From the NCBI GenBank assembly GCA_965247995.1, contig OZ252041.1:1218444-1282443 (forward strand): a stretch of 64,000 bases of DNA, in the 5' to 3' direction. Origin of the DNA: Dehalococcoidia bacterium. Its GTDB lineage: Bacteria; Chloroflexota; Dehalococcoidia; UBA6926. The position numbers and the translations under genes were made by a program. Position 1 is the first letter of the stretch. Each line of letters begins with the position of its first letter. Shown piece after piece: positions 37,115-64,000 of the stretch. The notes under the pieces were generated by a model. That model saw nothing but the letters and a program-made list of their open reading frames with translations. It did no database searches and was not told the origin of the DNA.

Positions 37115-37193
37115 GACCCGGTGGTGTAGTCTGGTTTAACATACTGCCCTGTCAAGGCAGAGATCGCCGGTTCAAATCCGGTCCGGGTCGCCA
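37115..37193 (+). tRNA. tRNA-Asp (anticodon GTC), CCA encoded
   Basis: Cloverleaf folded by hand: acceptor GACCCGG/CCGGGTC, anticodon loop CTGTCAA with U33, T-loop TTCAAAT, discriminator G. Confidence 0.8.
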
Positions 37194-37215
37194 GGCTTTT
37201 TGCGGGGAGGTTGCT

Positions 37216-37686
37216 GTGGAGCTAATGGTCTGCAAGGTCCCGCCATCATTGGCCGGCGATCCTGGGCCCTTCCCCTTTGATCCCAGATACGAAGAACACT
37301 TCCGAGCGGCCGCCGCTCGTCGCGCAGTATTGGTGCTCGAAGGTGACGTCCTCGCCAACAGCGACGAATGGTACAGGGCGTTTCAGGTTGACACGCGGTC
37401 GCTGTTACCCGCCACGGACGCGGCTGGTCGCTACCTCTACGGGATGCCGACGGAACTATACGTTCGAGCTCAACGAGTCTGCCAGCAATATGCGATCGGT
37501 GGGGTGCCACGCGCTGGGGACCTCGGCTACACAATGGAGCACAACAAGCTTTGGTTCTTCACTCGCACACAACCGCACAGCATGGATCGGTTTGATCCCG
37601 TCCTGGATCAAATCACCGCAGACTTCTCGGCATACGTCGTGGACGATTTCTTCGGACCGCATCGGCAGCCGCTTGGCGTCGGATAG
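37216..37686 (+). CDS. Hypothetical protein, first gene of tRNA-adjacent island
   Basis: GTG start after GGGGAGG; no domain recognised. Confidence 0.4.
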   Translation: MELMVCKVPPSLAGDPGPFPFDPRYEEHFRAAAARRAVLVLEGDVLANSDEWYRAFQVDTRSLLPATDAAGRYLYGMPTELYVRAQRVCQQYAIGGVPRAGDLGYTMEHNKLWFFTRTQPHSMDRFDPVLDQITADFSAYVVDDFFGPHRQPLGVG

Positions 37687-37697
37687 GATGCCGCGGG

Positions 37698-38294
37698 GTG
37701 GTCGATACGCGAAGACGTCCTCTCGCGGTGAACGGCTCCACGGTGGTACCGTTGGCGACGGTGGTCAAGACACTCGAAGACGCGGGGACTCCCGAGGACC
37801 TTATCCACCAGGTAGTCGTGGCGAGTCAACCTATTCCAGTCACACTCCGAGAAGCCGCAGAACGGTGTAGTGCGCCTCATCGCCGGGTACGTTGGTGGCA
37901 CAGTCGGGGCCTACTCTCCGAAGTAAGTCGTGAGAAGGGCCCAGGTCCGGGTGGGAGAATCGTCTATGTCGATCTTCACGAAGTTGAACACTTGGTGAAG
38001 CACCCACCCAGCGGCGATTCGCGCCGAGCACATGACGCGCCAGCTTTCGTGCCGGGAGAGCCCAATCCGGTATTGCTCCGTGAGGCCGCTGAGCGGTGCG
38101 GGTTGCCTCTCAGCCGGATTAGGGGATGGCATGCTCGGGGCCACCTTGACGAGGTCGGCAGAGGCCCTGGCCCGGGGGGTTCGATCGTCTACGTTGACCT
38201 CAACCAGGTCCATTATCTCAGGGACAACCCTCCCCCCTACGGGCCGCGCCCCAAACTGGAGGCGTACCTCAAGATTGTCGCGAGTGTGATGTAG
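37698..38294 (+). CDS. Tandem excisionase/MerR-like HTH_17 domain protein (two ~55-aa repeats)
   Basis: Internal duplication VTLREAAERCSAP...GGRIVYVDL / VLLREAAERCGLP...GGSIVYVDL. Confidence 0.5.
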   Translation: MVDTRRRPLAVNGSTVVPLATVVKTLEDAGTPEDLIHQVVVASQPIPVTLREAAERCSAPHRRVRWWHSRGLLSEVSREKGPGPGGRIVYVDLHEVEHLVKHPPSGDSRRAHDAPAFVPGEPNPVLLREAAERCGLPLSRIRGWHARGHLDEVGRGPGPGGSIVYVDLNQVHYLRDNPPPYGPRPKLEAYLKIVASVM

Positions 38295-38611
38295 CACTGC
38301 TACTCGTCTGTTGACTTCTGCGGCGGGGGTTGACAGAGCCAAATAAAGGCATCTACCTTTCCCCCAGTCACTATCGGCTGGGGGTTTCTTGGTTCATGGG
38401 GAACGCACTCCACCGGCAACCGCGTGAGCGCAGCGTGCCCGATAGTCGAACCTTCGCTGAAGGGACGTGTCTTTCCCTAGCTATTGGGACCGCGTTTTTT
38501 GTCATGTCGCTTTGGCTCCACCAACTCCCCGAAATGCCGACGGTCGCTGCCGTCGGACTATTGGCGGCTATCCCGTTGACGTATGCCCTTGGGGCGATAT
38601 GCGGAGACGCT

Positions 38612-38803
38612 CTAGCTGGACATGCGGTTCGCTATGTAGAATCCCGCTCCGCCAATAAACGTGCTGACGACGAGCAGAACCGCCGCACCACCCCAATTGC
38701 CCACGATGGCGTTGAACACGATCAGCACGAACGCCGTGATCAACAGTAGTGCAAGTAGCACGCGAATGACCGCCGCAATGCCAGCTCCAATTACTCCGCC
38801 CAT
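38612..38803 (-). CDS. Small membrane protein (~63 aa, two TM helices)
   Basis: Strong SD GGAGGAGG 4 nt before ATG; consistent GC3 codon bias. Confidence 0.4.
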   Translation of the reverse strand: MGGVIGAGIAAVIRVLLALLLITAFVLIVFNAIVGNWGGAAVLLVVSTFIGGAGFYIANRMSS

Positions 38804-39004
38804 GTCCTCCTCCGTTCTTGAGATCCGCGTACTCGACCACGTACATCCTATTGGAACGGAGGGGGGCACCAGAACACCAATCGTGCGGGTGCCGAGCGAT
38901 CTCAAACCACCTCGGCTTCGGCCGCCAGATTCCTAGGTAACAAAAACCGACCGGCCCCTATCACTTGGCGGTGCAGCGGGGCCGGTCAGAAGAAAGGAGG
39001 GCGT

Positions 39005-39313
39005 ATGCCCTCGCCGACCAATTCTACCAGCGAACCGGCATCGGCGCGAAGACATGGCCGGAACCCGCTGGACTACCAGGACTCTCGAAACCGCGACCTG
39101 GGCCGTTGGGCTCCGCTGTTGTACTGCCCGGTCCTGGAGTGCAACAGGCCGGTCGAAGACCACCCACGGTGCACCGAATGCACGATCTCCGTCGGCCCCC
39201 ACCACTTCGAGCAGTACCTCACATCAGACGGGCGCTGCCTGACGTGTGCCTACACCGATCCAGTGCGTGATCCATCTCTGGAATATCTCCCGCTGCTATT
39301 GAGGGCGGGGTGA
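39005..39313 (+). CDS. Cys-rich zinc-ribbon protein
   Basis: SD AAGGAGG; three CxxC pairs. Confidence 0.45.
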   Translation: MPSPTNSTSEPASARRHGRNPLDYQDSRNRDLGRWAPLLYCPVLECNRPVEDHPRCTECTISVGPHHFEQYLTSDGRCLTCAYTDPVRDPSLEYLPLLLRAG

Positions 39314-39316
39314 GCG

Positions 39317-39766
39317 GTGGCCATGACCAGGCTCCCTTCTCACGTGTATGAGCGCCTAATGGTGCAGGGCCTTGCGCGCGAGTACATCGATGCGGTGGTT
39401 GAGTCTGCCCGACATGCCTTCGCGTCGGGCGACCTAGATCACGCGGCGCTGGTCGAGAACAACCACACCGACACCTTCATCGCGGCGCTGTTGTTGGTAG
39501 TCGGTGCTTTGGTTGACGAGCTCTCGCTGCCACCCTCCGGCGCACCCGGGGCCGCCGCATGCGACCGCTGCGGGAAGTCGCTCAACCCCGAGCAACTTAC
39601 ACGCGCTGCCGGCTCGGTCTCCTGTCTGGACTGCACGCTGGCGACGACGACTGACGATCTGACCCGCGTCGATATCAGCGTTGGCCTCTTACGCCGATTG
39701 CGGGGCGCAGCGTTGTACCGCCCACCCGAGACACACACGGACTCCCGATTCGACGCGACGACGTGA
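39317..39766 (+). CDS. TraR/DksA-type C4 zinc-finger protein
   Basis: CDRCGKS-x19-CLDC. Confidence 0.45.
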   Translation: MAMTRLPSHVYERLMVQGLAREYIDAVVESARHAFASGDLDHAALVENNHTDTFIAALLLVVGALVDELSLPPSGAPGAAACDRCGKSLNPEQLTRAAGSVSCLDCTLATTTDDLTRVDISVGLLRRLRGAALYRPPETHTDSRFDATT

Positions 39767-40008
39767 AACGAGAAAGGAGCGACCACCGCCATGAACGAAT
39801 CCCGCGAGACACGGGCACGCATGAACGAGCCCATCGGGAAACGGAATGGGGAAAAATCCGCGGCACGTTCGAAGGGTTGCCCGGGGGCAAGGACGCAGCG
39901 AAACGCGGAGCGCAGACGCGAGCGGCGAACGGCCTCGTGCCATTCCAACGGGTCGACGACGAGGACGACGGGCTCGGCAAAGACCAGGCCGCGGATCGGG
40001 GCTGAGGA

Positions 40009-40404
40009 GTGTCCCAACAAACCATGGCCAAGCTCCATCCAAGCTCATACACACGGCTGTGGCCCGTCTTGGGCCACTACTCAGTCATGGGTGTCATCGA
40101 CGACCATCTCGCTCGGCTCCAAGAGGCGATGGGCAAGGGCATGTCGTTGCCGAGCCCAGAGGCGTATTTGACTGCGGTCCTCGCAGACGAATTGGAGGCT
40201 CTGAAAAGTCCGTCGTTCGCGTCCGAACTGAACGGCGGCTGTGATCGATGCGGGAAAACGTTCGACCCCGAACGAGTGGTCCATTCGTCTGCCGATGCTC
40301 TCGCTTGGTGCATCGATTGTGCGCTGGCCGTGGTCGCTGATGAAGCTGCCCGGGTCAACGTCAGCGTCGGCCTCCTGATCCGGCTCCGAGACGGCGTGCG
40401 TTAG
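40009..40404 (+). CDS. TraR/DksA-type C4 zinc-finger protein, paralog of 39317-39766
   Basis: CDRCGKT-x21-CIDC; C-terminal ~50 aa alignable to paralog. Confidence 0.45.
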   Translation: MSQQTMAKLHPSSYTRLWPVLGHYSVMGVIDDHLARLQEAMGKGMSLPSPEAYLTAVLADELEALKSPSFASELNGGCDRCGKTFDPERVVHSSADALAWCIDCALAVVADEAARVNVSVGLLIRLRDGVR

Positions 40405-40433
40405 CCATCGGCACGATCCAGACGACGAGGAGG

Positions 40434-40664
40434 GTGACCATGCCGAATCGCAAGCAACACCGGGGCCTCAGCGTGCCAGCACGACCCGTTCCACCCGCGG
40501 ATGCACGCCGAATCGTCTACGTGTGTCGACTCCGATGCGGTCGCTGCGCGGCCCGAAACACGATCCGATGGATGTCCGACACGACTCCGCCGGCCGGCGA
40601 GTTGTGTGCCCGGTGCGGAGCTGGACTCCCCCTCCACGTCGAAGACGCATCCGAACCCCAATGA
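40434..40664 (+). CDS. Small zinc-ribbon protein
   Basis: CRLRCGRCAAR...CARCG. Confidence 0.3.
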   Translation: MTMPNRKQHRGLSVPARPVPPADARRIVYVCRLRCGRCAARNTIRWMSDTTPPAGELCARCGAGLPLHVEDASEPQ

Positions 40665-40770
40665 CACCCAGCGCTGCTGACCCTCGCGTCGTTGCCCTTG
40701 CTTACCGGCGTCCGGTGGTGTCGTGGGTGCTGAGGAGCTTCCGCGGCGCTCGTACCAGGTTCTACTAGTC

Positions 40771-50507: not shown

Positions 50508-50893
50508 GCGGGCACGAATCGAAGGGGGGCCGCACTCAGATGATGAAACAGCGCCTAGAAGTGCTCCGCATCCGTGCGGGGTTGTCTCACGCGGAGTTGG
50601 CAGATCGTCTGGCGCCAGGGCGCTCGTTGCGGAGCTCAACGCGCGCCGAGAAGGAAGTTGATCTCGGGTTGAGGATCCTGTCGCTCGCCCGAGAAATCGA
50701 GGGTGGGATCGAGGTTGTCCTCGGTGACGGCGAACCGACGGACGAGGAACTCAGGACAATGTGGAACGATCTCTCTAACCCGACGTGGCCGGGGCGCGGA
50801 CGCGGCGATCCAAAAATTGAGCGCGAGCCGCATGGCCCGCGGTCGAGCAGGTCGCCGAAGAGCAAGGGGAAAGACACACCCCAGAAGGCTTGA
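50504..50893 (+). CDS. Small HTH-like protein with basic C-terminus
   Basis: LRIRAGLSHAELADRL helix-turn-helix-like. Confidence 0.35.
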   Translation: MSGHESKGGRTQMMKQRLEVLRIRAGLSHAELADRLAPGRSLRSSTRAEKEVDLGLRILSLAREIEGGIEVVLGDGEPTDEELRTMWNDLSNPTWPGRGRGDPKIEREPHGPRSSRSPKSKGKDTPQKA

Positions 50894-50924
50894 CGCGTGA
50901 CTATACGTAACGTATACTATTGCC

Positions 50925-51143
50925 ATGGAGTTGCGGTTCACAAGTCACGCGCGGCGCGCGATGGTTGACCGGCGCATCACCCATGAGATGGTCGTGGCGA
51001 CGATTAACGGTGCGCGGGCCATTGAGGTAGGGCGAACGGCGACCATCTACGATGCTGAGGTAGATGCGCGGCTCTTGCGTGTTGTCGTCGTGCGTGGCTC
51101 ATACCCGCCAATCGTCGTCACGGTGCACGAACGGGATCGTTAG
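50925..51143 (+). CDS. DUF4258 domain protein
   Basis: FTSHARRAM...LRVVVV...VVTV pattern. Confidence 0.5.
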   Translation: MELRFTSHARRAMVDRRITHEMVVATINGARAIEVGRTATIYDAEVDARLLRVVVVRGSYPPIVVTVHERDR

Positions 51144-51151
51144 GAGGAAGG

Positions 51152-51388
51152 ATGGAACTGCGCTATGACCCGGAGGCCAATGCCATTTATGTGTCGCTTC
51201 GGGAGTACACCGGGAAACGGCGATCGAAGAACGTGGGTGACTGGCGCCACGTGGTCGACTATGACGAAGATGGCGAGCCGGTAGGGGTGGAGATTCTCGA
51301 AGTCTCTTCGGGTATTGACCTCCACGGGCTACCCGAGGCCGAGGCAATCGCCGCACTCATCCGGTCGTTCCCGCAACTGGTGGCGTGA
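51152..51388 (+). CDS. DUF2283 domain protein
   Basis: YDPEANAIYVSL...VDYDEDGEPVGVEIL pattern. Confidence 0.5.
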   Translation: MELRYDPEANAIYVSLREYTGKRRSKNVGDWRHVVDYDEDGEPVGVEILEVSSGIDLHGLPEAEAIAALIRSFPQLVA

Positions 51389-51603
51389 GGCGGGACGGCG
51401 ATGTCGCGGCTTGGCTCCAGAGGAAACGGGCTGAGCTTGGGCTTACTCAATCCCAGCTTGGTCAGGCCCTCGGTGTGAGAACCAACACGATAGCGCGGTG
51501 GGAGCGCGGGGAATTAGTGGTGCGGCACTCGCGGATGTTGCGGCTCGCTCTGGACGCTCTCCGCGGGTCGGCGCCGGGCGACGGGACTCCGGAACGAAAC
51601 TAA
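51385..51603 (+). CDS. XRE-family HTH transcriptional regulator
   Basis: LGLTQSQLGQALGVRTNTIARWERG. Confidence 0.55.
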   Translation: MRRDGDVAAWLQRKRAELGLTQSQLGQALGVRTNTIARWERGELVVRHSRMLRLALDALRGSAPGDGTPERN

Positions 51604-51846
51604 CGATCGTGCCAAAAACGCGACGATGCTGGCAGGTTGCACCAATAGGGGGCAAACTGTCTCAATGACGGGGCGGATGACACCGCTCTCCAATAGGCGC
51701 GGACGGCGCGGAATGTACACACGGCCCGCGTCTGTGCAACCGGATTCCGGAGCAAAACGTTACATCGCCACCCAGCGGCTGCCCGACTACCTCGAGCAGA
51801 CTGGGGAAGCCTGCTTGGGATACCAAGCAATGATCTAGATCAGCCG

Positions 51847-52629
51847 ATGGCAGAATCAGAATTGCACAAGCGAGCCCGCCGATTGTTGCAGCGCGGCGAC
51901 CGTGTGGGCCAACCTTTCGGTGAAGCTCTCGTCGCCGTGGACACAGACGCGCGTGGTGTCCGAATCAAGGACGGCCCAGCCAAGGGCAAAGCGGTCGATG
52001 CCTTCGTCGAAGCCCCAGAAGGTTACCGCGTTGGACTGGAGTTCCATTATCGGCACAAGGTCGGTGCCGCCAAAATCGCACTACTCAAAGAAGACGGGCG
52101 CTATCCGGTCCTAGAAATCGATCTGTTTCAAGGATTGAACGATGCGTCGGACGATGAGCTGCGGCAATACATCGTTGGTTGGCCCGGTTCGCACCGATTC
52201 ACTCGCCGCTGGCTGTACTTGCCGTCCATGTATGACATCGAGCGACAGGTCGCACCGGAGCGGCTTGAAGCCTTGGGTTGGATACAAAACCACGCGCGCA
52301 TCGACGAACGAGGAATGTCATCGGCGGAGTTGGAGGAGCTGTGGGCTAAGGACCGATGGGCCTCCGACGTGCTCGACAATACCAGCCGATTTGGCTGGCT
52401 GAAGTGTTGTGTGCCAGGGTGCAACGGCAAACCATCAAGAGGGTCACAGACGGTTGAATCTTACGAAACGTTGCCCCGGTTCGCTTGCTCTGACCACATC
52501 ATGCACACGGAGTTGCTGACCCATCCTGACGGGGTCCGCGCTTACAAGGAAGCGTTTCCGCGCATCGCATCGGACGTCGTCCAGGGTCAACGAGTTGATC
52601 AATCAGGGCAACCAGGTGATGGTCGTTGA
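51847..52629 (+). CDS. Hypothetical protein (260 aa) coupled to recombinase
   Basis: Stop overlaps recombinase TTG start; Cys cluster KCCVPGCNG. Confidence 0.4.
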   Translation: MAESELHKRARRLLQRGDRVGQPFGEALVAVDTDARGVRIKDGPAKGKAVDAFVEAPEGYRVGLEFHYRHKVGAAKIALLKEDGRYPVLEIDLFQGLNDASDDELRQYIVGWPGSHRFTRRWLYLPSMYDIERQVAPERLEALGWIQNHARIDERGMSSAELEELWAKDRWASDVLDNTSRFGWLKCCVPGCNGKPSRGSQTVESYETLPRFACSDHIMHTELLTHPDGVRAYKEAFPRIASDVVQGQRVDQSGQPGDGR

Positions 52630-53129
52630 GACCCGCGCTCTACGCCCGCGTCTCGACTGACGATAAGGGCCAAGACCCGGAGACGCAGCTCGTACAGTTG
52701 CAGCAAGCGGTAGGGGACGCCGCAACCCGCACCTATGTTGACCGCGCCTCGGCCGCCAACCTACGCGGACGGGCGGAGTGGCGGCAGCTACTTGACGACT
52801 GCCGCCGTGGACTCGTCCAGACGATCTACATCACCAAGATCGACCGTGCCTGGCGCTCACTGGCACAGATGAGCGCCGACCTGGAGCACCTGGACCGATG
52901 GGGCGTCGAGCTGGTGGTGACGACACAGCCGATCGATACCCGTGGTCCGACCGGGCGACTCGTGCGGAACATTCTCGGAGCTGTCGCGGAGTTCGAGCGA
53001 GAGCTGATCGCGGAGCGCACGCGCGAAGGCCTTGACCGGGCGAGACAACAAGGGAAACGTCTGGGCCGCCCGAAGGGATCTCAGGACAAGCAACCCCGCC
53101 GACGTGGCGGATACTACGCAAGAGCGTGA
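52626..53129 (+). CDS. Serine recombinase (resolvase/invertase catalytic domain), C-terminal HTH missing
   Basis: YARVSTDDKGQDPETQ catalytic Ser motif; ends shortly after GRPKG. Confidence 0.7.
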   Translation: MRPALYARVSTDDKGQDPETQLVQLQQAVGDAATRTYVDRASAANLRGRAEWRQLLDDCRRGLVQTIYITKIDRAWRSLAQMSADLEHLDRWGVELVVTTQPIDTRGPTGRLVRNILGAVAEFERELIAERTREGLDRARQQGKRLGRPKGSQDKQPRRRGGYYARA

Positions 53130-53192
53130 GGACAAAGGGGGTCGGAAAATCAGTGTGCCGGCTAGGAACGAATCGGCCTCTCAGCGGGGCGA

Positions 53193-53214
53193 CAAACAAA
53201 CGGGCGTTTGTTTG
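53193..53214. promoter_or_regulatory. Perfect palindrome CAAACAAACG-GG-CGTTTGTTTG
   Basis: 10-bp arms; related to palindrome at 55029. Confidence 0.4.
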
Positions 53215-53477
53215 AGCTCGTCCAAGGACCTGTCACAACGGGAGAGGTGGCACTACCCGGACTGACCCCATAGATGGGAACGGTAGGGGGAGGGTCGGCT
53301 ACGAGTGAGAGGAGACCTTCCTCCTCAGTACGGTGCGAATGTAGTGTGGTGAGAATGTCCACGTTCTGATCAAGGTGGGCGCATGAGTGCCCGTTAAGTA
53401 GCTGCCGACCGCTAATATCATCGGCGAGGTCCGCTGGATGGTGTCGGACGCTTTAGTACAGTTGTGGTAGACATCCC

Positions 53478-54017
53478 GTGACGCCCACGCATGCGGAGAG
53501 CCATGAGTTGCACTGTCGGCCTATCCGCACAAGCAGGGATTCGGACATAGCATTGACCACTCGACAGTACAACGATGAAGAAATCAATGAGCTGAAGGCG
53601 ATGCCGAAGCGCGTGACCAATCCAGGAGCCCGGTGGGCGAGCAAGCCGGGGCACCGCCAACGTAACTTCGTGGTCGCCGGGCTTCAGGATACCGCAAACC
53701 AATTCCAAATCTATCAGCGCCAGAGCGAGGCAGACGAGCACGACTTCTCCTGCGGGATTGCGTTCCTTCCGACCGGCGGACAACGGTTGACGCTGGCTCG
53801 TTACAACGGGCCGAGTCACATTCATGGCGACATCGCTTTCCGTCCACACATTCATCGCGCAACGGCGCGCGCTATGTCTATTGGCAAGAAGCCCGAGGCT
53901 GAGGCCGAGGAAACCAACCGATTCACAACTCTTGAAGGCGCGTTCAGATGTTTGTTTGAAGACTTCAGTCTCAGCGGGATCACCCCTCCCGAGCCCGACC
54001 AAGCGAGGCTTCTCTGA
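53478..54017 (+). CDS. Hypothetical protein (start uncertain; possible MPKRV at 53601)
   Basis: ORF; His-rich HIHGDIAFRPHIHR; coupled to next. Confidence 0.35.
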   Translation: MTPTHAESHELHCRPIRTSRDSDIALTTRQYNDEEINELKAMPKRVTNPGARWASKPGHRQRNFVVAGLQDTANQFQIYQRQSEADEHDFSCGIAFLPTGGQRLTLARYNGPSHIHGDIAFRPHIHRATARAMSIGKKPEAEAEETNRFTTLEGAFRCLFEDFSLSGITPPEPDQARLL

Positions 54018-54796
54018 TGAACCTCGATGTAGACGCCTTAAGAAACCTCTTATGCGAACGCTTGTGCGAAGACGTGCGTGTCGAGACGCGCCCAGACGGC
54101 GAGCTCATGCTACGGACGCACTTCACGTTTCCTGATGGAGACGGCTACCCCTTCCACCTGTCCGAGGCGCCTGCAGGCGGTCTCCGCCTGTCGGACCAAG
54201 GGCACACGCTCATGCATGTCAGCTACGAGCACGACATCGACTCGTTCCTGACTGGGACGAGGGGGGCTCTGCTCGAACGGATTGTCAGCGAGGGTGAGTT
54301 CGGCTACGCCGATGGCATGTTCTACACCGACACTCCACCGGAGCGACTACCCGAAGCCATCTTCAGGTTCGGCCAGGTGCTGACCCGGGTATACGATCTG
54401 ACCTTCTTGTCCCGCTCCAACGTGGGCTCCACATTCTATGACGACCTTGCCGACACTCTGACGGGCCTTGTGGACGAGGCGAAGATGCAGCGCGACTACC
54501 AACCAAACGTACCGAATGCGGAGGCGTACCTCGTAGATTATCGAATCGAAGGCAAGGGCGAGGTTCCACTTTTTGTCTACGGTGTGCCTAACCGCGACAA
54601 GGCTCGACTCGCGACTATTATGTTGGCCTACTTTCACCGACATAGCGTTCAATTCGAGTCGATCATCGTCTTCCAGAACCAAGAGGAGATTCCGAGGGTC
54701 GACCTCGCGAGGCTTTCGGACGTGGGCGGAGAAATGATCTCGTCACTGGAGTCGACCGAAGACCTGAACCGGAAACTACTGCGCCGTGTAGCTTAA
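54017..54796 (+). CDS. Hypothetical protein (259 aa), possibly DUF1828/DUF1829-like
   Basis: ORF with TGATG coupling; weak resemblance only. Confidence 0.4.
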   Translation: MNLDVDALRNLLCERLCEDVRVETRPDGELMLRTHFTFPDGDGYPFHLSEAPAGGLRLSDQGHTLMHVSYEHDIDSFLTGTRGALLERIVSEGEFGYADGMFYTDTPPERLPEAIFRFGQVLTRVYDLTFLSRSNVGSTFYDDLADTLTGLVDEAKMQRDYQPNVPNAEAYLVDYRIEGKGEVPLFVYGVPNRDKARLATIMLAYFHRHSVQFESIIVFQNQEEIPRVDLARLSDVGGEMISSLESTEDLNRKLLRRVA

Positions 54797-55028
54797 AAAA
54801 CAGCGAAGAGCGTATCGCAATTTGCCAGAGTGGTTCGCCTCGTGAGCTCCTAGGTCGAGGTGACCAGCCAGGTCCTTTCCAGCGACCTCGATTCGGGGGG
54901 TCTCAAGCGCCCGCCGGTTGGCACGATCCGGCGGGTCTGAAGAAGCGGCAGCGATGGGTGCGCCAAAAACGGGTCCACCAACCGAGGGTGCCGCGGCTAT
55001 CTAGCCGACCTGCTCCCCATGAGAGGTG

Positions 55029-55051
55029 TTACAAACGAACGTTTGTGACAC
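55029..55051. promoter_or_regulatory. Palindrome TGTTACAAACG-AA-CGTTTGTGACA
   Basis: Shares ACAAACG-NN-CGTTTGT core with 53193 palindrome. Confidence 0.4.
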
Positions 55052-55460
55052 CCGTCGCCCCTTGGACTATCAGTGGGGGAGCGGTCAGAGCCCGGTGTTC
55101 GTGTAGACGCGGGGCGCGACCTCGACCTGTTTGAGCCCTACTGCCCGGCCGCGGTCAATCAAGTCTTGTCGTGAGGCGTCGTACCGGGCCGCATGCTGCC
55201 CAAAGACCGCAGTGAATGGCGGTGGTTCAGAACACTCGACGCCGATCGACGCTCCGCACTCATCGCACACGAAGTCGGTTTCTGATCGGCGCTCGAGAAC
55301 GGGTTCGTCGTACATGGCTCGGACGGTACCGTCCGTGTAGAGTGGCCGTCAACGAGGTGTGGCGTTCGAGAACTAAGCGACCCACGGTGGAGGTGTTGAG
55401 CGGAATCGGGTGAGGTGGAAACCGGTGAGTGGGAAGGCATGAAGGCGTACACGCTAACAC

Positions 55461-55489
55461 TTGACGTGTATACCCTAAGCATGTACACT
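55461..55489 (+). promoter_or_regulatory. Promoter of higBA (TTGACG-N17-TACACT), leaderless transcript predicted
   Basis: -10 ends 8 nt before higB ATG; near-palindrome ACACTTGACGTGT overlaps -35. Confidence 0.4.
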
Positions 55490-55496
55490 TCCAGCA

Positions 55497-55793
55497 ATGA
55501 GGATCGAGTTCAGCAACAACCGGCTTGCAAGGGCGTACGCGGAACCGGAGCGGGCGATCCGACAATGGGGAGACCAGATCGGCATCCGTTACGTGCAGCG
55601 CGTGCGAATGGTGGAGAATGCTGACCGGTGGGAAGATTTGCAATCGTTCCGCGCGCTGCGTATCCATCCGCTGAGGGGGTCACGGCGGGACCAATGGGCA
55701 GTGAACGTGACGGGGCGCTGGCGGCTGATTGTCACGAGGCCCGACCAGGACACGGTACGAATCGAGGAGGTGAGCGCGCACTATGGCGACTGA
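55497..55793 (+). CDS. higB: HigB-family toxin (RelE/ParE superfamily)
   Basis: HPLRGSRRDQWAVNVTGRWRLIV...VRIEEVSAHYGD pattern. Confidence 0.7.
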   Translation: MRIEFSNNRLARAYAEPERAIRQWGDQIGIRYVQRVRMVENADRWEDLQSFRALRIHPLRGSRRDQWAVNVTGRWRLIVTRPDQDTVRIEEVSAHYGD

Positions 55794-56073
55794 GGAAAGA
55801 GTTGAACCGAGGATTGCCATTCCACCGGGCCTGATGCTCAACGACGAGCTTGAGGCGCGAGGAATGAGTCAACGACAACTCGCTGCTTCGATGCGGCGTC
55901 CCGTCAACACCGTTAATGCAATCATCCACGGCCGCAAGGCAATCACGGCGCGGACCGCGGTTGAACTGGAGGGAGCGCTTGGAACCCCAGCCTATCTATG
56001 GCTCCGAGCGGAAGCGGACTATCAATTGGCCCTTGAGCGGGGGTTTCCGCCGATGGCGTCGCTCATCGAATGA
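55783..56073 (+). CDS. higA: HigA-family antitoxin (XRE HTH)
   Basis: Overlaps higB stop; GMSQRQLAASMRRPVNTVNAIIHGRKAIT. Confidence 0.7.
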   Translation: MATEERVEPRIAIPPGLMLNDELEARGMSQRQLAASMRRPVNTVNAIIHGRKAITARTAVELEGALGTPAYLWLRAEADYQLALERGFPPMASLIE

Positions 56074-56085
56074 GCTGATCCCTCG

Positions 56086-56276
56086 CCCAGATGAGTGCTG
56101 ACCTTGAGCATCTCGACCGGTGGGGTCTCGAGCTAGTGGTCACAACCCAACCGATCGACACGCGCGGTCCTACCGGCCGCTTGGTCCGAAACGTCCTCGG
56201 CGCCGTGGCGGAAATTCGAGCGCGAACTCATCGCGGAGCGGACCCGGGAAGGCCTGGATCGTATTCGAATCGGTGA
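56086..56276 (+). pseudogene. Degenerate duplicated 3' fragment of serine recombinase gene (frameshifted)
   Basis: ~80% nt identity to 52868-53043 (MSADLEHLDRWG.ELVVTTQPIDTRGPTGRLVRN), 1-bp indel. Confidence 0.6.
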
Positions 56277-56279
56277 GGG

Positions 56280-57398
56280 GTGACTAAGGGGCCAGGAGCG
56301 GTTCTTCTGGTCGCCGCGTTCTTAGCGGTCGGCGTCGCTTGCGGACCGTCGGACGAGGAGGTTCAGCAGCTCGGCGGAGAGCGGAATCAACAGCAGCCCG
56401 CACAGGCCAGTCCGACGCCCACGGTTATCGAGCTTGGTGATGCGGAGGCTGTGCACACTTCCGCCGAAATCTATGGACACATTCCTGTGAGGCCAGCTAG
56501 TTCTCAGATCGAGAGTTACCGACTCTATGCGCTAGACCTGATCAACGAAGACCGCGCGAAGCACGGCGTTCCGCCGGTGCAACTCGGCGCGAACGAGGCA
56601 GCGCAAGTCTATGCAGAGGACAAATTGGCCAAGGCTTTGGAAAACGAGGATGCGTGGGCCAACGCCTATTCGACCGAGGGTTTGAAACCCTACATGCTGT
56701 ACGCGTTGGCGGGTGGGACCGGTAGGACGCACATAGCTGGCGGTGGCCGTTGGTATCCCGACCCTTCGTTGTGCAGACAGCCCTTGGTGGTTTGCAGCCC
56801 CTTGGACATCGACGAGTCGATCCGCGTTGTTCAGTGGATGGTGACCTACAGCCACGTCGGGGCGGACAATCAGTTGTCGGGTGCGAGGGTCCGCCCCGAC
56901 GTCGATACCGTGAACATTGGGCTCGCCTGGGACGACCGACGGTGGGTATTCGCGATGTCCCAATATTTTGAATTCGTCGGCATTGAGTATGTATTCGAGC
57001 CCGGTTTCGAAAGCGGTACCTTCAGCATGACCGGGCGACCGGTAGGTGACCTGGGTATCGGTGCTGTCTCGATCTACTTTGATCCCCCGCCGCGGCCGTT
57101 GACCCGTGAAGAGCATGAGCGCGTGCGCGCTCCTTGCCTAGGTGGAGGAGTAACTGACAAGTGCGACGACGTGGAACCCATCATCCGTGTTCTGCGCCCA
57201 CCAAAGCCTGGATCCTACTATTCGGACTTGGAGCCGATTGAGGTGGTCGCGGGCGAGTGGAACAGTAGCAGTGACGGCACGGTGACCATCCGTGCGGAAC
57301 TTGGCGATCAAGTAGCTGAACCGGGTGTCTACACGATCGTCGTCTGGTCCGCCGACTTCGACCTCGTGTTGAGCGAATATTCGATCTTCGCGTACTAG
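56280..57398 (+). CDS. Secreted CAP/SCP (PR-1-like) domain protein, probable lipoprotein
   Basis: Signal peptide LLVAAFLAVGVAC; YALDLINEDRAKHGVPPV CAP motif. Confidence 0.5.
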   Translation: MTKGPGAVLLVAAFLAVGVACGPSDEEVQQLGGERNQQQPAQASPTPTVIELGDAEAVHTSAEIYGHIPVRPASSQIESYRLYALDLINEDRAKHGVPPVQLGANEAAQVYAEDKLAKALENEDAWANAYSTEGLKPYMLYALAGGTGRTHIAGGGRWYPDPSLCRQPLVVCSPLDIDESIRVVQWMVTYSHVGADNQLSGARVRPDVDTVNIGLAWDDRRWVFAMSQYFEFVGIEYVFEPGFESGTFSMTGRPVGDLGIGAVSIYFDPPPRPLTREEHERVRAPCLGGGVTDKCDDVEPIIRVLRPPKPGSYYSDLEPIEVVAGEWNSSSDGTVTIRAELGDQVAEPGVYTIVVWSADFDLVLSEYSIFAY

Positions 57399-57427
57399 GT
57401 TCGCCAACGGCGTCCCGCGCCGTTCGG

Positions 57428-58303
57428 CTAGCTGGGCTCGGAGGTCGTGGATTGCCCGCTCGGTGCCAGTGTTCCCGTGGGAACACTGCTCGATCGGCGT
57501 TTCACGTTTCCAAAGACCGGCCGGCCAACGAGAAAACTCTGATATGCCACGAGCATGATCGCAACCATATAGCCGAGCGGAACCAGGGTAAGGGCCACCG
57601 TCATGGCTGTGTACTCGGGAGCGAATTCGTAGATCTCGTACGCAATCGCCGCGGGCTTCAACACTCCCGGCAACACAACAGTTCCGCCGAGGCCGATGAA
57701 CGTCCCCCCTACGACGCCGGATCGACTTAGATTCACTATGGCCGCGGCGCCGAGGATAGCGCCGACGCCAACGACGACCGCGAGCGTCGGCAAGATCCTG
57801 ATGAGGATCGCCTTCAACCCGGTCGGTGTCGCTGCCCTGTAGCCCACGTCGATTGTGTGATCGGGGGCTTCACCGGTGAGCCTCGTGATGATGATCGTCT
57901 GCCGGTCCTCCACATTTAGAGCCGCACTTGCCGTGACATCGCCATCGATGCTGCTGGTCACCACCATGTCGGTCGTGTACGCGTACCAGTGAGGCGAGGG
58001 CAAGGTGACCGATGCTGCCGTGTCGTCGAGGGCGACCGGTGTCTCACGAAAGTGAGCGATCTCGGTGAGCCGGTTCGTCAATACGCGCTCGCCGTCAATG
58101 AGGACGGTGGCCAACCCCGAGAATGCGAGGAACACGACCACCAGGGCCCCACCACCGTACAGGGCTGCGAATAAGGCGCGCCGCGGGGCCGATTCCAGGA
58201 ACCCCCGCAACGGTGGTCGATTCACCCACTCCTCACGAGCCTTTTCGGCGACCTGTGCCCAGATCTGTGACCACTCCAGGCTCGACGTTTCCGGTGTTGT
58301 CAT
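57428..58303 (-). CDS. Membrane protein (291 aa)
   Basis: Multiple predicted TM helices; ATGA overlap with upstream gene. Confidence 0.45.
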   Translation of the reverse strand: MTTPETSSLEWSQIWAQVAEKAREEWVNRPPLRGFLESAPRRALFAALYGGGALVVVFLAFSGLATVLIDGERVLTNRLTEIAHFRETPVALDDTAASVTLPSPHWYAYTTDMVVTSSIDGDVTASAALNVEDRQTIIITRLTGEAPDHTIDVGYRAATPTGLKAILIRILPTLAVVVGVGAILGAAAIVNLSRSGVVGGTFIGLGGTVVLPGVLKPAAIAYEIYEFAPEYTAMTVALTLVPLGYMVAIMLVAYQSFLVGRPVFGNVKRRSSSVPTGTLAPSGQSTTSEPS

Positions 58304-58575
58304 TCCGCCGTATCCTTTCCGGCTGCTCGGGACTCGAACAATTCGGCCTCGAGTTCATCGACACGTCCTTCCCTGCCTAGCCCCCAACCGAGGTCGACGC
58401 ACCACAAGACAATTAACACAACCAACGCTGCCATAATTGGATCGTTAGCTACGTACACGCCGATGCCCGCAAATGGTGCGCTGCATACGTAGAACACCCA
58501 CGGGGTCGACGAGAAGCTCGATGGTCGTCTAGGCCGTTTCTCTAGCTTTGTGCGAATGTCCGTCAGGAATCGCAT
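58300..58575 (-). CDS. Small membrane protein (91 aa)
   Basis: Two TM helices. Confidence 0.35.
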   Translation of the reverse strand: MRFLTDIRTKLEKRPRRPSSFSSTPWVFYVCSAPFAGIGVYVANDPIMAALVVLIVLWCVDLGWGLGREGRVDELEAELFESRAAGKDTAE

Positions 58576-58599
58576 GGTGTACGCCCCTTTCGTTCCGGC

Positions 58600-61500: not shown

Positions 61501-62166
61501 CAGGCGATGAAACTCCTCTTCCGGGCTGAGGCCGCTCATGTCGAGCGCGTCGGGGCCGTCGGTCATAACGACCGATTGCGCCCACTCCGGTAGAGCGTCC
61601 CACTCCTCCTGGTCGACAGACCGGAAGCTCCCGTCATCGTCCATCCCGACGAACGCCCGAGATGGATCGATATACCCCAGCTCTTGATACCGGTCGAACT
61701 GCGCTGCCGGTTCGAGGCCTCCGACGTCCAACGCGACGAGGCCCTCGTCCATGACGGCCTCCTGCGCTAGTTCGGGCTCCGCGTCGAACTCGTCCTTGTA
61801 GACGCGGGCATAGACCGATGGGCCACCGCGGCCCCAAGCGGCGGCCGTTGTATCGATCGGGACGGTGAGCACCTGACGGCCAGGTTCGTCGGTTGCGTCC
61901 GTCAGCGTGGACGGCCCAACGGCGAACCGCTCCCGTTCCTGGCGCCGCGCGTCCTCGAGGAGCGCGAGGTCGGTGAGGTGATATCTTTCGCCCGTGTTCC
62001 GATCGATCGCGAGCTGGTCGTCGCCCTCGGTAACGACATCGAAGCCCAGCTCCTGAGCGATCTCGGTTCCCTTCACCCTGTTGTCGGAGGCGAACGCGTC
62101 GTTCGTCGTTGAGAGTTTCTGAGGCTGGGTTCCGTTGCTGCTTGTGTTCGCTTTTTCTATTGCCAC
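58600..62166 (-). CDS. Giant acidic repeat protein (1188 aa) with coiled-coil and tandem repeats
   Basis: GTG start at 62166 with AGGAGG; 11 x TGEDIT[TA][RH], 3 x IPQRDELESEASDRETSLRLH, Ala/Gln-rich coiled coil, basic tail. Confidence 0.6.
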   Translation of the reverse strand: MAIEKANTSSNGTQPQKLSTTNDAFASDNRVKGTEIAQELGFDVVTEGDDQLAIDRNTGERYHLTDLALLEDARRQERERFAVGPSTLTDATDEPGRQVLTVPIDTTAAAWGRGGPSVYARVYKDEFDAEPELAQEAVMDEGLVALDVGGLEPAAQFDRYQELGYIDPSRAFVGMDDDGSFRSVDQEEWDALPEWAQSVVMTDGPDALDMSGLSPEEEFHRLQSYGAIDSMLVFAGIDEEGNFLVDESPLAPPEKAEPGPVSIDMLSADAAHSMGDHPITDDFAPDDFAPADGGEYDDQDEPLYEGISGAALDQILNSALAGESDATAVEAARAELERRELQTALALAYEAVILDPEAAEEDVAIAIEALDQLRKDGAVDSAADRVAAQHAERRARAEAVALPDMAEEAGDPIEKEPDSATYLIPQRDELESEASDRETSLRLHDERDIPQRDELESEASDRETSLRLHRQRDDIPQRDELESEASEHETMLRLQREQETEQSPRSSPKAIDPGKSTLNLAEAFAEALDNLGSIAPGPIRRPDGSFGLAIGTTVSVREGDRIVFTDSGEVIGVERRGEGVVDVKDLDQQAFGPAAVGSLIAAAFALHGAGASSAGAVAREGASRVLRSAPVQELLRALGHTPDDIVTAHIRIGPGGLILTPKTGRGITLPIPQGASQLVDDAGLSSRTAQQVARTERQAATQLAERASVAEAEAAAANAEAIAAAARSARAERLFGDVNLAIERGKLREGATAIAKHADDLAARQQKQAAALVERQRRAAISARLQAENAEAQRVAAEAAQAAAERAGLRSQAASHRAGLEKTQQTRHAADQAIARERQLRETAARLRNAADRARESADAAEAFANLEINIAALPIRVLRQAAASLSAADRGPIDAAINGRLETQQETDEGIATSTGEDITTHTGEDITTRTGEDITTRTGEDITTRTGEDITTHTGEDITAHTGEDITAHTGEDITTRTGEDITTRTGEDITTRTDTIPSKVLPAVPKVVPTIATSSRFVKKLAAMEDPVGEAPERKKPPEQRPPSERIETDEGGQQKPNRHKRRPISPRDDASPRRGRIDRRRIIDQEVASYPEVVAYREPGGLWRTVDIDTGETVVSPDPPAGIPPLAIEGATPHETYTVLSRDGDPPSQRTLDLGGSRVTVGEGLHIQRRRGGQRGRKQRPRRR
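59180..59443. repeat. 11 tandem 24-bp repeats (GTACGGGTCGTGATGTCCTCGCCG variants) inside giant ORF
   Basis: Near-perfect head-to-tail copies, unit multiple of 3. Confidence 0.8.
60665..60900. repeat. Three tandem ~63-bp repeats inside giant ORF
   Basis: Encode IPQRDELESEASDRETSLRLH units. Confidence 0.6.
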
Positions 62167-62182
62167 CGTGGACCTCCTGTAC

Positions 62183-62572: not shown

Positions 62573-62586
62573 GCGTCATCTGTCCT

Positions 62587-63963: not shown

Positions 63964-64000
63964 CGTTTCCCACTCCCCGGCTGGTGGAATCGTGGGTACG

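Follow-up and report, generated by a model that had tools for sequence, protein, structure and literature searches.

From the 3' end of a tRNA-Asp gene onward, the 64,000-nucleotide stretch of Dehalococcoidia chromosome analysed here (the window) is best read, from its sequence, as carrying an integrated, self-replicating, IME1-like virus-like element of a non-tailed (budding or filamentous) kind, a reading given a probability of about 0.6. Approximately 27 kb of this element lies inside the window, and the whole is estimated at 35 kb at least; position 37194 onward is its replication and accessory half, while the other half lies partly past the window end. Since its distal half encodes membrane proteins and a Zot/pI-like assembly ATPase, the element looks like a recently proposed non-tailed Chloroflexota virus lineage (bioRxiv 10.64898/2026.09.15.751708) rather than a helper-dependent satellite. 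An earlier note on this DNA had described an accessory island at tRNA-Asp that ended at 56280, lacked virion genes and resembled a satellite or phage-inducible chromosomal island (PICI). Its account of the gene content, the abrupt border and a mobile, self-replicating element at this tRNA largely held up, but its end point, the absence of virion genes and the satellite reading did not.

Insertion site and the replication and accessory half

Domain calls were taken from Pfam, NCBIfam and PADLOC, and phage families from PHROG. The host genes lspA-rluD-gltX lie directly 5' of tRNA-Asp, and at its 3' end these housekeeping genes give way abruptly, as the earlier note had observed, to a co-directional, translationally coupled block of regulation, replication and accessory genes (11 four-nucleotide start/stop overlaps checked: six ATGA, four GTGA and one TTGA). 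The left junction is located at or within the 3' end of tRNA-Asp. The gltX-tRNA-Asp pair is retained in about 19 Dehalococcoidia metagenome-assembled genomes (MAGs), none of which shares window content downstream of the tRNA; this comparison, which the earlier note had proposed, is a weak empty-site test because gltX is only about 64% identical to that of the window genome. Homologous elements, with primases 50-58% identical, sit directly 3' of a tRNA amid unrelated host genes, with an orientation that never varies (tRNA-Asp likewise placed in L084 and L085, a tRNA-Asp 3' fragment in L083 and tRNA-Gly in L086). The features of this half are as follows.

37115-37193, plus: tRNA-Asp(GTC) (ARAGORN; Rfam 64.5 bits), integration target
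37216-37686, plus: 156-aa ORF of uncertain coding status (weak coding score, no Pfam match, not conserved in relatives)
37698-38294, plus: 198-aa DNA-binding protein of excisionase type with tandem MerR/HTH_17 domains (Pfam; alignment to relatives)
38612-38803, minus: 63-aa hydrophobic protein with about three hydrophobic segments, status uncertain
39005-39313, plus: Cys/His-rich 102-aa protein, zinc-ribbon-like by eye only (no Pfam match)
39317-39766, plus: CxxC...CxxC zinc-ribbon protein, paralogue of 40009-40404 (38% identity)
40009-40404, plus: second CxxC...CxxC zinc-ribbon protein (L082 copy 100% identical over 103 aa)
40771-43431, plus: primase-helicase, 886 aa, with CHC2 zinc ribbon, Toprim/DnaG domain and DUF927 region (Pfam, PHROG, NCBIfam)
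43449-43744, strand not applicable: iteron origin, a ACTGGACTA array followed by an alternating CG tract (43727-43744)
44290-44853, plus: mini Pol X/Pol-beta-like nucleotidyltransferase, 187 aa (DNA_pol_B_thumb, 41 bits)
45346-45891, plus: MazG-like pyrophosphohydrolase (domain match)
45888-46382, plus: Fic-domain protein (SoFic motif match covering only about 30 aa)
46968-48719, plus: N6/N4 DNA methyltransferase (Pfam E = 8e-39; PADLOC MTase_II)
48889-49341, plus: ASCH protein (domain match), followed by a small ORF
49480-50079, plus: DnaJ-domain protein (domain match)
50076-50507, plus: dCTP deaminase/dUTPase-like protein (domain match)
50925-51388, plus: DUF4258/DUF2283 pair, toxin-antitoxin-like (domain match)
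52626-53129, plus: small serine recombinase, catalytic domain only, 167 aa (Resolvase E = 1e-36)
53553-54796, plus: two-gene accessory pair (phrog_27326; DUF1828/phrog_5059, PADLOC PDC-M24B-like)
55497-56073, plus: HigB-like toxin and HTH_3 antitoxin (HigB 23.5 bits, below the 27-bit cut-off)
56091-56276, plus: partial gene for a second serine recombinase, read as a recombination scar

The DNA-binding protein nearest the tRNA contains its domain twice (MerR_1 25.3 bits against a cut-off of 21.6; HTH_17 match weak), in keeping with the tandem Xis-like protein that had been proposed, and both halves align to the single-domain first post-tRNA gene of L083, L084 and L086; judged by its sequence, it is a candidate recombination directionality factor or regulator. 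The two paralogous CxxC...CxxC proteins likewise stood, but the TraR/DksA assignment did not, as all zinc-ribbon or DksA/TraR matches of the 39317-39766 protein were non-significant (TraR/DksA E = 0.28).

The primase-helicase matches PHROG DNA primase families and the TIGR01391 dnaG domain (E = 1.4e-13), has homologues of 45-58% identity on other Chloroflexota-type contigs, and is presumed from its sequence to be the replication initiator. Ten copies of ACTGGACTA occur within 43450-43672, seven direct (43450-43605) and three inverted (43646-43672), and they account for all but one of the 11 copies in the whole window, where 0.17 would be expected. Six elements (the window's own and those of L082-L086) have iterons directly after the primase-helicase gene, each array built on a 9-mer of its own. 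The order of regulators, primase-helicase and iterons noticed earlier is upheld. Mini Pol X is kept in L082, L084, L085 and L086.

Pfam, NCBIfam and PADLOC agree with the previous calls of primase-helicase, mini Pol X, MazG, Fic, methyltransferase, ASCH, J-like and dCD-like proteins, and the serine recombinase and HigBA were also recovered, the latter as a HigB-like protein with an HTH partner. The methyltransferase start was revised to GTG 46968, which overlaps the upstream stop, the SPPY motif being upstream of the first gene call. The small serine recombinase, whose nearest NCBIfam catalytic domains are XisF and CcrB, has no C-terminal HTH, whereas the L085 and L086 versions have one.

In agreement with the earlier note, the domain and phage-family searches gave no match to a tyrosine integrase, terminase, portal or capsid within 37194-64000, nor to a large serine recombinase, and tyrosine integrases were likewise missing from every visible element end across the family. 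ORFs on the minus strand that extend into the tRNA are not shared by relatives. The suggested search for a direct repeat of the tRNA-Asp 3' end found none elsewhere in the window, including between the two halves of the element, and neither the right end nor attR was found in the sequence reached. Integration might depend on the small serine recombinase together with the att-proximal HTH protein, on a recombinase beyond the sequence reached, or on a host recombinase. The G+C content does not differ between element (0.620) and host (0.623); this similarity, unlike the situation in IME1, is counted against the preferred reading, as are the missing integrase and attR and, in the other half, the missing capsid or coat protein.

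The membrane and secreted half and its continuation

The position at which the island had been thought to end, 56280, merely marks a switch from cytoplasmic-type to membrane or secreted proteins. Beyond it, transcription is convergent and then divergent, and almost only membrane-anchored or secreted proteins are encoded, together with a soluble ATPase. The part inside the window comprises the following genes.

56280-57398, plus: 372-aa secreted or lipoprotein-like protein (N-terminal hydrophobic segment; no family matches)
57428-58303, minus: 291-aa membrane protein with four TM segments, paralogous to the 4-TM protein heading the ATPase cassette
58300-58434, minus: 44-aa single-TM protein (TM prediction)
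58600-62166, minus: 1188-aa acidic, coiled-coil repeat protein with a very basic C-terminus (TGEDITTR, ten times)
62183-62572, minus: 129-aa membrane protein (99% identical copies on the L081 and L082 contigs)
62587-64000, minus: last 470 aa of a 630-aa protein that has a signal peptide and, towards its C-terminus, two TM anchors; gene and element run past 64000

That the 630-aa protein gene crosses the window end bears out the suspected continuation past 64000. The minus-strand products of 57428-64000 (4-TM, 1-TM and 2-TM proteins, a signal-peptide protein with C-terminal anchor, and the 1188-aa repeat protein), with the Zot/pI-like ATPase cassette just beyond, contradict the earlier denial of virion genes. 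None of the element's products was recognised as a capsid or coat protein, and its small TM proteins could be placed in no family or fold. The 372-aa protein is 49% identical to a 428-aa protein of L081, whose gene runs in the opposite orientation, and the 291-aa protein matches both 7819-8457 of L088, a second stretch of the L082 contig (31% identity, E = 3e-12), and a 227-aa protein of L087 (E = 5e-14). The 1188-aa protein gave no family matches in Pfam and PHROG searches; its orthologues in L081, L082 and L089 are variable and 1090-1200 aa long.

These three contigs are 92-97% identical to window positions 57428-64000 (94-97% over its last 2.6 kb) and may be strain variants of one chromosomal locus. 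Past the window end they bear a cassette that comprises small membrane proteins and the ATPase and was read on them as proxies for the window's own continuation, a point counted against the preferred reading. They carry the same minus-strand operon, joined at varying junctions to the replication module or to a different accessory block. Both halves occur together in the window, L081 and L082 (85-99% protein identity) around a mosaic middle of the sort typical of an actively recombining population, and L089 adds the distal half only. Because the same operon recurs at different junctions and no tRNA-end repeat separates the halves, the two halves are taken to be one element and not two. The ATPase (P0031) and the window primase (P0001) are each found on a contig of exactly 1,958,694 bp.

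The ATPase, encoded about 4.5 kb beyond the window on the near-identical contigs, is a soluble P-loop protein without a TM domain. Pfam Zot is matched by 58 of its 88 profile homologues, its best PDB sequence match by profile is 2R2A (E = 1.8e-15), and its AF2 model (pLDDT 89) has Inoviridae Zot proteins as top BFVD matches; structurally it comes nearest to the Zot/pI proteins of filamentous phages and to the packaging ATPase of STIV2. The distant relative L087 keeps this two-operon membrane/ATPase module (ATPase 40% identical) and has host-type genes within about 2 kb after the ATPase.

Alternative readings and a proposed life cycle

A helper-dependent satellite or PICI-like island, that is, a small replicon using helper phage capsids and lacking virion genes of its own, would account for the P4/PICI-like order of HTH regulator, primase-helicase and iterons and for the missing capsid, terminase and portal matches, and IME1 was once read likewise. 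It is nevertheless very improbable: PICIs measure roughly 8-15 kb against at least 35 kb here, no integrase lies beside the tRNA, no capsid-remodelling or small-terminase-type genes were found, and the element runs through 57428-64000 into a conserved module of membrane proteins and a Zot-like ATPase, with which it would need no helper. An ordinary tailed prophage with highly divergent structural genes, its capsid, portal and terminase lying further past the window, appears quite unlikely. The large proteins (1188 and 630 aa), the unseen far right end and a Phage_T7_tail match at the N-terminus of a 457-aa protein just past the window (27.3 bits against a cut-off of 25.2) fit such a prophage, but the signal peptide and three C-terminal TM segments of that protein do not fit a tail fibre, about 20 distal-module proteins have no PHROG or Pfam structural match, the sole ATPase is Zot-like rather than a terminase, L087 returns to host-type genes soon after it, and an IMG/VR search found no relatives of the element.

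It also seems unlikely that the membrane proteins and an FtsK/HerA-superfamily ATPase form the DNA-transfer apparatus of an integrative conjugative or vesicle-borne plasmid-like element: searches of the visible part found neither a relaxase nor a VirB4-size ATPase or FtsK/TraB domain, by fold and by profile the ATPase matches Zot/pI and a viral packaging ATPase best rather than conjugation ATPases, and DNase-protected particle fractions are enriched for IME1 elements, which come closest in kind among those described. The locus could instead be decayed or composite, a tRNA hot spot at which two unrelated elements, or what is left of them, have lost mobility; this would explain the resolvase fragment, the intact resolvase without a DNA-binding domain, the truncated or IS-filled relatives L083, L084 and L086, the lack of a visible integrase or att repeat, and the host-like G+C. 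Such decay is highly unlikely given that the genes are intact and tightly coupled, that both halves co-occur in three places at high identity and that no att-like repeat lies between them.

Under the preferred reading, an IME1-like non-tailed virus, a circular double-stranded DNA episome would replicate after excision, with replication starting when the primase-helicase binds its own iterons. The membrane proteins and Zot-like ATPase might then build particles that contain DNA and release them non-lytically across a wall-less, S-layer-type envelope, either by budding or by extruding filaments. The methylase could protect element DNA, MazG and the dCD-like protein could reshape nucleotide pools, and the toxin-antitoxin pairs could stabilise carriage.

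Comparison with known systems

IME1 elements of Dehalococcoides and Dehalogenimonas (Molenda et al. 2019, as cited in Nesbo et al., bioRxiv 10.64898/2026.09.15.751708) were first called satellites or PICIs and have since been reinterpreted as probable budding or filamentous viruses that dominate DNase-protected viral fractions; their modules include a pI-like ATPase with TM proteins, signal-peptide/TM proteins, a resolvase and a primase-helicase, inserted downstream of a tRNA (same preprint). The present element is likened to them by module set, not by protein homology: a Dehalococcoidia host, insertion downstream of a tRNA, a primase-helicase and small serine recombinase in the replication module, a pI/Zot-like ATPase (also resembling archaeal virus packaging ATPases) beside several small TM proteins, further signal-peptide/TM proteins near an HTH regulator, and no tailed-phage hallmark genes. 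It differs in that the replication module faces the tRNA (reverse orientation), whereas the first post-tRNA gene of IME1 is a tyrosine recombinase; in size (at least 35 kb against 21-28 kb); in its host-like G+C; in its DnaG/Toprim-type primase as opposed to the 'archaeal primase-helicase' of IME1; and in its large accessory block and the absence of a metallophosphoesterase motif from its large CDS.

Inoviruses (Tubulavirales) also possess a pI/Zot morphogenesis ATPase (Roux et al. 2019, PMC6813254). The element shares with them an ATPase of the Zot family by transitive profile search and fold, small TM proteins clustered with it, toxin-antitoxin pairs, a serine recombinase and a prophage location beside a tRNA. 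Inoviruses have 4-12 kb single-stranded DNA genomes and a rolling-circle Rep, whereas this element is far larger (at least 35 kb), carries a primase-helicase and iterons, encodes an ATPase without a TM domain and has no recognisable major coat protein.

A P4-like satellite or PICI resembles the element in its tRNA-adjacent position and in the succession of AlpA/Xis-type HTH, Toprim primase-helicase and nearby origin, but the element lacks an integrase beside the tRNA, has about three times the size and bears a membrane/ATPase morphogenesis module of its own. Archaeal budding or membrane-containing viruses (Fuselloviridae SSV1, STIV2 with packaging ATPase B204, pleolipoviruses) differ in that no jelly-roll capsid, VP1-like protein or SSV-type split integrase was identified here and the host is bacterial. 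They are resembled in the double-stranded DNA provirus at a tRNA gene, the morphogenesis module rich in membrane proteins and a host without a peptidoglycan wall, such a wall being absent from Dehalococcoides.

The tRNA-proximal half and its target site

With a probability of roughly 0.6, the DNA that follows tRNA-Asp is read here as the replication and accessory half of a non-tailed, virus-like provirus resembling IME1, the elements of Dehalococcoides and Dehalogenimonas. An earlier note had likened 37194-56280 to satellites or phage-inducible chromosomal islands (PICIs), with no visible virion genes. Instead, the element goes on beyond 56280 through membrane and secreted genes to 64000 and further, and these distal membrane proteins, together with a cassette encoding a Zot-like ATPase, point to a non-tailed virus-like provirus. 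Genes were called with a codon-usage model, the gene at 37698-38294 and the start of the methylase at 46968 were set by comparison with relatives, and family assignments were confirmed by searches including Pfam, PHROG, NCBIfam and PADLOC.

Features of the tRNA-proximal half (window positions; entries without positions were assigned by family searches)
37115-37193, plus: tRNA-Asp(GTC), directly after lspA, rluD and gltX
First ORF after the tRNA: putative 156-aa protein without a Pfam match
37698-38294, plus: 198-aa protein with two tandem MerR/HTH_17 domains
39317-39766 and 40009-40404, plus: two paralogous CxxC proteins (38% identity), upstream of the primase-helicase
40771-43431, plus: primase-helicase with CHC2 Zn ribbon, Toprim/DnaG and DUF927 region
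Start at 46968, plus: N6/N4 methylase (family search)
52626-53129, plus: serine recombinase, 167 aa, catalytic domain only
53553-54796, plus: two-gene pair, phrog_27326 and DUF1828/phrog_5059, resembling the PADLOC candidate defence family PDC-M24B (second protein, E = 4e-8)
56079-56276, plus: fragment of a second recombinase gene (family search)
Pol X-like protein, 187 aa
MazG, Fic and ASCH proteins, a protein with a C-terminal DnaJ domain, and a dCD/dUTPase-like protein
DUF4258/DUF2283 pair
HigB-like protein with an HTH partner

Most of the gene content named in the earlier note is supported by these searches, namely the primase-helicase, the tandem Xis-like HTH protein, mini Pol X, MazG, Fic, the methylase, the ASCH, J-like and dCD-like proteins, the serine recombinase and HigBA, as is translational coupling, with eleven adjacent gene pairs sharing a four-base overlap. 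The TraR/DksA assignment did not survive (E = 0.28, not significant): the proteins concerned are the two CxxC paralogues, each with one CxxC-x(16-22)-CxxC motif, at whose position relatives encode differently built small Cys-rich proteins. A gene at 37911-38213 on the minus strand was rejected, the conserved gene being 37698-38294 on the plus strand; three relatives have a single-domain version of it as the gene next to the tRNA. The two-gene pair at 53553-54796 may be defence cargo. The second-recombinase fragment lies 3 kb downstream of the intact gene and is 89% identical in nucleotide sequence to the allele on L081, a contig closely matching the distal end of the window, against 78% for the intact gene; a 47-nt direct repeat (52992-53038 and 56215-56261) flanks the DUF1828 pair, a Zn-finger gene and HigBA. 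Fragment and repeat together look like a recombination scar of cassette exchange.

The iteron array that the earlier note placed immediately 3' of the replication gene is borne out. The 9-mer ACTGGACTA occurs ten times in 43450-43672 (seven direct and three inverted copies) and 11 times in the whole window, against 0.17 expected. Homologues of the primase-helicase with 50-58% identity lie on four long contigs (L083-L086), and an iteron array stands directly 3' of the initiator gene in the window, in all four of these and in L082, a further contig close to the window that has a different initiator. The repeated 9-mers differ among the arrays (ACTGGACTA, GTGGTCAC-type, GGTGGGGCA, GTGTGGCA-type, AGTGGTAAC and ACCCGTCAT), and since a fixed position combined with a diverged 9-mer is the pattern of initiator-specific origins, the arrays look like candidate origins of this type. 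In three family members the array is succeeded by an alternating CG tract (window 43727-43744, L083 12957-12971 and L084 12886-12899), which may have a structural role in the origin.

The 3' end of tRNA-Asp, which contains CCGGGTCGCCA, is where the element begins, and the G+C content of the island equals that of its host (about 62% in the window). Judged by its gltX product, this host is an uncultured member of the Dehalococcoidia (Chloroflexota). The gene order lspA-rluD-gltX-tRNA-Asp is repeated in about 19 related metagenome-assembled genomes, which downstream of the tRNA have nothing in common with the window. The comparison with related genomes suggested in the earlier note thus finds the island absent, but it is uninformative as an empty-site test: gltX products are at most 64% identical, synteny is limited to lspA-rluD-gltX-tRNA, and these genomes are too distant because the 10 kb upstream of lspA are likewise not shared. 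In L084 and L085 the element begins right after a complete tRNA-Asp, within host flanks unlike those of the window. L083 carries a 53-nt 3' fragment of tRNA-Asp (L083 7156-7208) upstream of the element, beside IS elements, and in L086 the element follows tRNA-Phe and tRNA-Gly (L086 8149-8343). Because a tRNA-Asp 3' fragment adjoins the element in one case and tRNA-Gly in another, the family appears to be tRNA-directed and not confined to tRNA-Asp. In each of the four contigs the replication module faces the tRNA, and no integrase was seen at the tRNA-proximal end.

The absence of a visible integrase was confirmed for 37194-64000, where neither a tyrosine nor a large serine recombinase was detected by Pfam (including PF00589) or by tblastn with a tyrosine recombinase probe, and where the uncalled gaps are too short to conceal one. 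The 167-aa serine recombinase has a domain nearest to the catalytic domains of the XisF/CcrB type; its counterparts in L085 and L086 have 206-211 aa and a C-terminal HTH. Two split arrangements were considered and rejected. In the case of a large serine recombinase divided between gene g61 and the resolvase, g61 has no Recombinase or Zn_ribbon_recom match and is not conserved beside the resolvase. An integrase split as in SSV was dismissed because only the tRNA itself is conserved, the minus-strand ORFs running into it (window 37172-37534; L085 7088-7600) being Arg/Pro-rich wrong-frame products. It is plausible that the att-proximal tandem MerR/Xis-like protein acts as a directionality or targeting factor.

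The distal membrane half and its ATPase

From 56280 onward, all products are membrane or secreted proteins, except for a repeat-rich protein of 1188 aa with a very basic tail. Among the 28 products encoded at 39.3-56.3 kb, none has hydrophobic segments comparable to those of the distal half, save for a borderline stretch in g41.

Features of the distal half and of its continuation on closely related contigs
56280-57398, plus: lipoprotein-like secreted protein, 372 aa
57428-58303, minus: 4-TM protein, 291 aa
Distal half of the window: single-TM protein, 44 aa
Distal half of the window: membrane protein, 129 aa
Up to 64000: C-terminal 470 aa of a 630-aa protein with signal peptide and two C-terminal anchors
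Past the window (L081, L082, L088, L089), minus-strand operon: 457-aa protein (signal peptide and 3 TM), 128-aa HTH-like protein
Divergent cassette after the operon: proteins of 212 aa (4 TM), 163 aa (C-terminal TM), 204 aa (C-terminal TM) and 143 aa
Cassette, continued: 316-aa P-loop ATPase, 55 aa (2 TM), 220 aa (signal peptide)
Cassette, end: 142-157 aa (2 TM), 527-aa HExxH protein

The exact 129-aa protein was found on L081 and L082 (assembly set ERZ26167216), which are 92-97% identical to the matching parts of window 57420-64000. The homologue of the 372-aa protein on L081 (15242-16528) is 49% identical and lies on the opposite strand relative to the neighboring 291-aa gene; an invertible segment around 56280-57398 was considered, but a search for inverted repeats on either side of it found none. 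Two repeats lie within the 1188-aa gene: one of 24 nt with 10.2 copies at 59180-59423, encoding TGEDITTR about ten times, and one of 75 nt with 2.8 copies at 60683-60898. Its orthologues on L081, L082 and L089 have 1090-1200 aa, most of the variation being in the middle of the protein.

Used alone, the 316-aa ATPase matched only generic AAA models, and three homologues were found at cluster level among 5.8 billion proteins, whereas a profile search of 1.84 billion representatives recovered 554 relatives. The Pfam Zot model (PF05707) matched 58 of the 88 aligned relatives (best E = 1e-16), and the combined profile searched against PDB sequences gave 2R2A as the best match (E = 1.8e-15). With the large alignment, AlphaFold2 produced a model with pLDDT 89 and pTM 0.78 (a model from a seven-sequence alignment, pLDDT 53, was discarded), and in a Foldseek comparison with viral models, Zot proteins of Inoviridae ranked 1, 4, 6 and 11. 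A Cys cluster after the Walker A motif is conserved in the family. The C-terminal part is predicted to form a compact alpha/beta unit of two short strands, three helices and two short strands, which, judged by eye, resembles a winged helix and not the TM anchor of classical pI; the helix at residues 243-261 was rejected as a pI-type TM segment, not being hydrophobic in homologues. A distant relative on contig L087, with an ATPase 40% identical, keeps the whole divergent two-operon arrangement. The first cassette protein there is homologous to the window gene at 57428-58303, host-type genes lie within about 2 kb of the ATPase, and no integrase was found near it. In IMG/VR, neither the 630-aa protein nor the primase nor the ATPase alignment had a match, and a scan of JGI metagenomes likewise gave none.

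Joining of the two halves and size of the element

The replication and membrane halves appear to belong to one element. On L082, the 1193-aa gene borders at its 3' end on DNA that matches window 47359-44344 and 40659-39889 with 88-98% identity; this variant is without the 11-kb accessory block at 47.4-58.7 kb. No repeat of the tRNA end was found between the two halves. L081 differs in its accessory set, which comprises HicB, DUF5677, an 85%-identical resolvase and a KAP NTPase. The ATPase itself was read on proxy contigs. Since two of its variants (P0031 and P0034, with 4 aa differences) and the window primase (P0001) are each recorded on a contig of 1,958,694 bp, the cassette very probably follows 64000 directly in the window genome. 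This genome may hold two copies of this kind of element, much as D. mccartyi 195 has three IME1s. The 26.8 kb in the window and at least 8.5 kb on proxy contigs give a size of at least 35 kb; the L082 variant, lacking the 11-kb block, would be nearer to IME1 in size.

The point at which the L081/L082 match stops (about L082:1729) was rejected as the right end of the element, as the match is broken there by a 5.8-kb insertion within the 527-aa HExxH gene of L082 (12370-19423 on L088, a second stretch of the same contig). Encoded in the insertion are a 282-aa protein, an LRR surface protein of 1258 aa and a large serine recombinase fragment, and a 3568-aa ORF follows. L081 (26.5 kb) and L089 (32.1 kb) both end 150-430 bp past a 96-97-aa gene located after the 527-aa gene; this shared stop could be the junction between element and chromosome, or a branch in the assembly graph, such as one between episomal and integrated forms.

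Reading of the element and comparison with known systems

Most in doubt in this reading is the role of the membrane/ATPase module, which may build virions or another DNA-export device. A more specific proposal is advanced only tentatively: the element would represent a distinct, undescribed branch of non-tailed Chloroflexota dsDNA viruses of about 35 kb or more that leave the cell without lysing it, by budding or in filament form, with an iteron origin and a DnaG-type primase-helicase, a soluble Zot-like ATPase with a winged-helix-like C-terminus to package or export DNA, and integration at tRNA-Asp or tRNA-Gly without a tyrosine integrase, possibly through the small serine recombinase and the MerR/Xis-like protein. 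Apart from the small ssDNA inoviruses, hardly any non-tailed viruses that leave bacterial cells without lysis are known. The element here would extend viruses of the IME1 kind to a distant, high-G+C lineage of Dehalococcoidia, with a much larger genome and a different integration arrangement, and it offers two directly testable features, namely an element-specific iteron origin and tRNA-specific integration without a visible tyrosine integrase. A tRNA island of Chloroflexota with a primase and no capsid genes should not automatically be taken for a satellite or PICI.

Satellites of the PICI type have an integrase beside att, span about 8-15 kb, lack a morphogenesis module of their own and carry genes for helper exploitation, whereas the element here, at 35 kb or more, lacks an integrase beside the tRNA and has a membrane/ATPase module of its own. 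Inoviridae combine a pI ATPase bearing a TM domain with single-TM coat proteins of 30-90 aa and a small ssDNA genome with a rolling-circle Rep. The ATPase family matches, and small TM proteins (44, 55 and 63 aa) are present; however, the ATPase lacks a conserved TM segment, and neither the size nor the primase-helicase with iterons fits. Roux et al. 2019 (PMC6813254) define the pI ATPase as the sole marker that inoviruses conserve. A tailed phage of the Caudoviricetes is not indicated, as no terminase large subunit, portal or HK97 capsid was matched by Pfam or PHROG in the window and about 14 kb of proxy sequence beyond it. Nor is an integrative conjugative element, since the part read contains no relaxase, VirB4-type ATPase or FtsK-like TraB translocase; the 316-aa ATPase is nearest to Zot.

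The closest comparison is with IME1, described by Nesbo et al. in a preprint of September 2026 (10.64898/2026.09.15.751708) as elements of 21-28 kb in Dehalococcoides and Dehalogenimonas. They are inserted downstream of a tRNA, with a tyrosine recombinase at the start. Their ATPase is pI-like but has similarity to archaeal packaging ATPases as well, and small TM proteins are encoded after it. IME1 further encodes other proteins with signal peptides or TM segments, a resolvase of the small serine-recombinase type, a primase-helicase and, at its end, a repressor. The elements exist in circular form too and are dominant in viral fractions protected from DNase. Earlier work had regarded them as satellites or PICIs, whereas the authors propose a new budding, probably filamentous dsDNA virus lineage restricted to Chloroflexota. 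Their search looked for tRNA insertion, an XerCD-family tyrosine recombinase as first CDS, a large CDS that may include a metallophosphoesterase domain, a bifunctional primase-helicase, a terminal Cro/C1-type HTH repressor and about 23 +/- 2 kb (10.64898/2026.09.15.751708). The element here departs from this description in that its first genes encode the 156-aa protein and the MerR/HTH_17 protein, not a tyrosine recombinase; it spans at least 35 kb versus about 23 kb; and its orientation to the tRNA, G+C content and primase type differ. At the tRNA side, its terminal gene encodes a MerR/HTH_17 protein and not one of the Cro/C1 type. Its large CDS (1188 aa) has no Pfam match and no metallophosphoesterase signature (GDxxDRG or GNH[DE]), a feature that the IME1 search wording treats as optional. 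The tRNA-adjacent insertion and the domain content of the primase-helicase at 40771-43431 agree with the IME1 description. By description, the element shares with IME1 the same set of modules and the same kind of ATPase: a pI/Zot-like ATPase, read on proxy contigs, has small TM proteins as neighbors, and the replication module includes a small serine recombinase.
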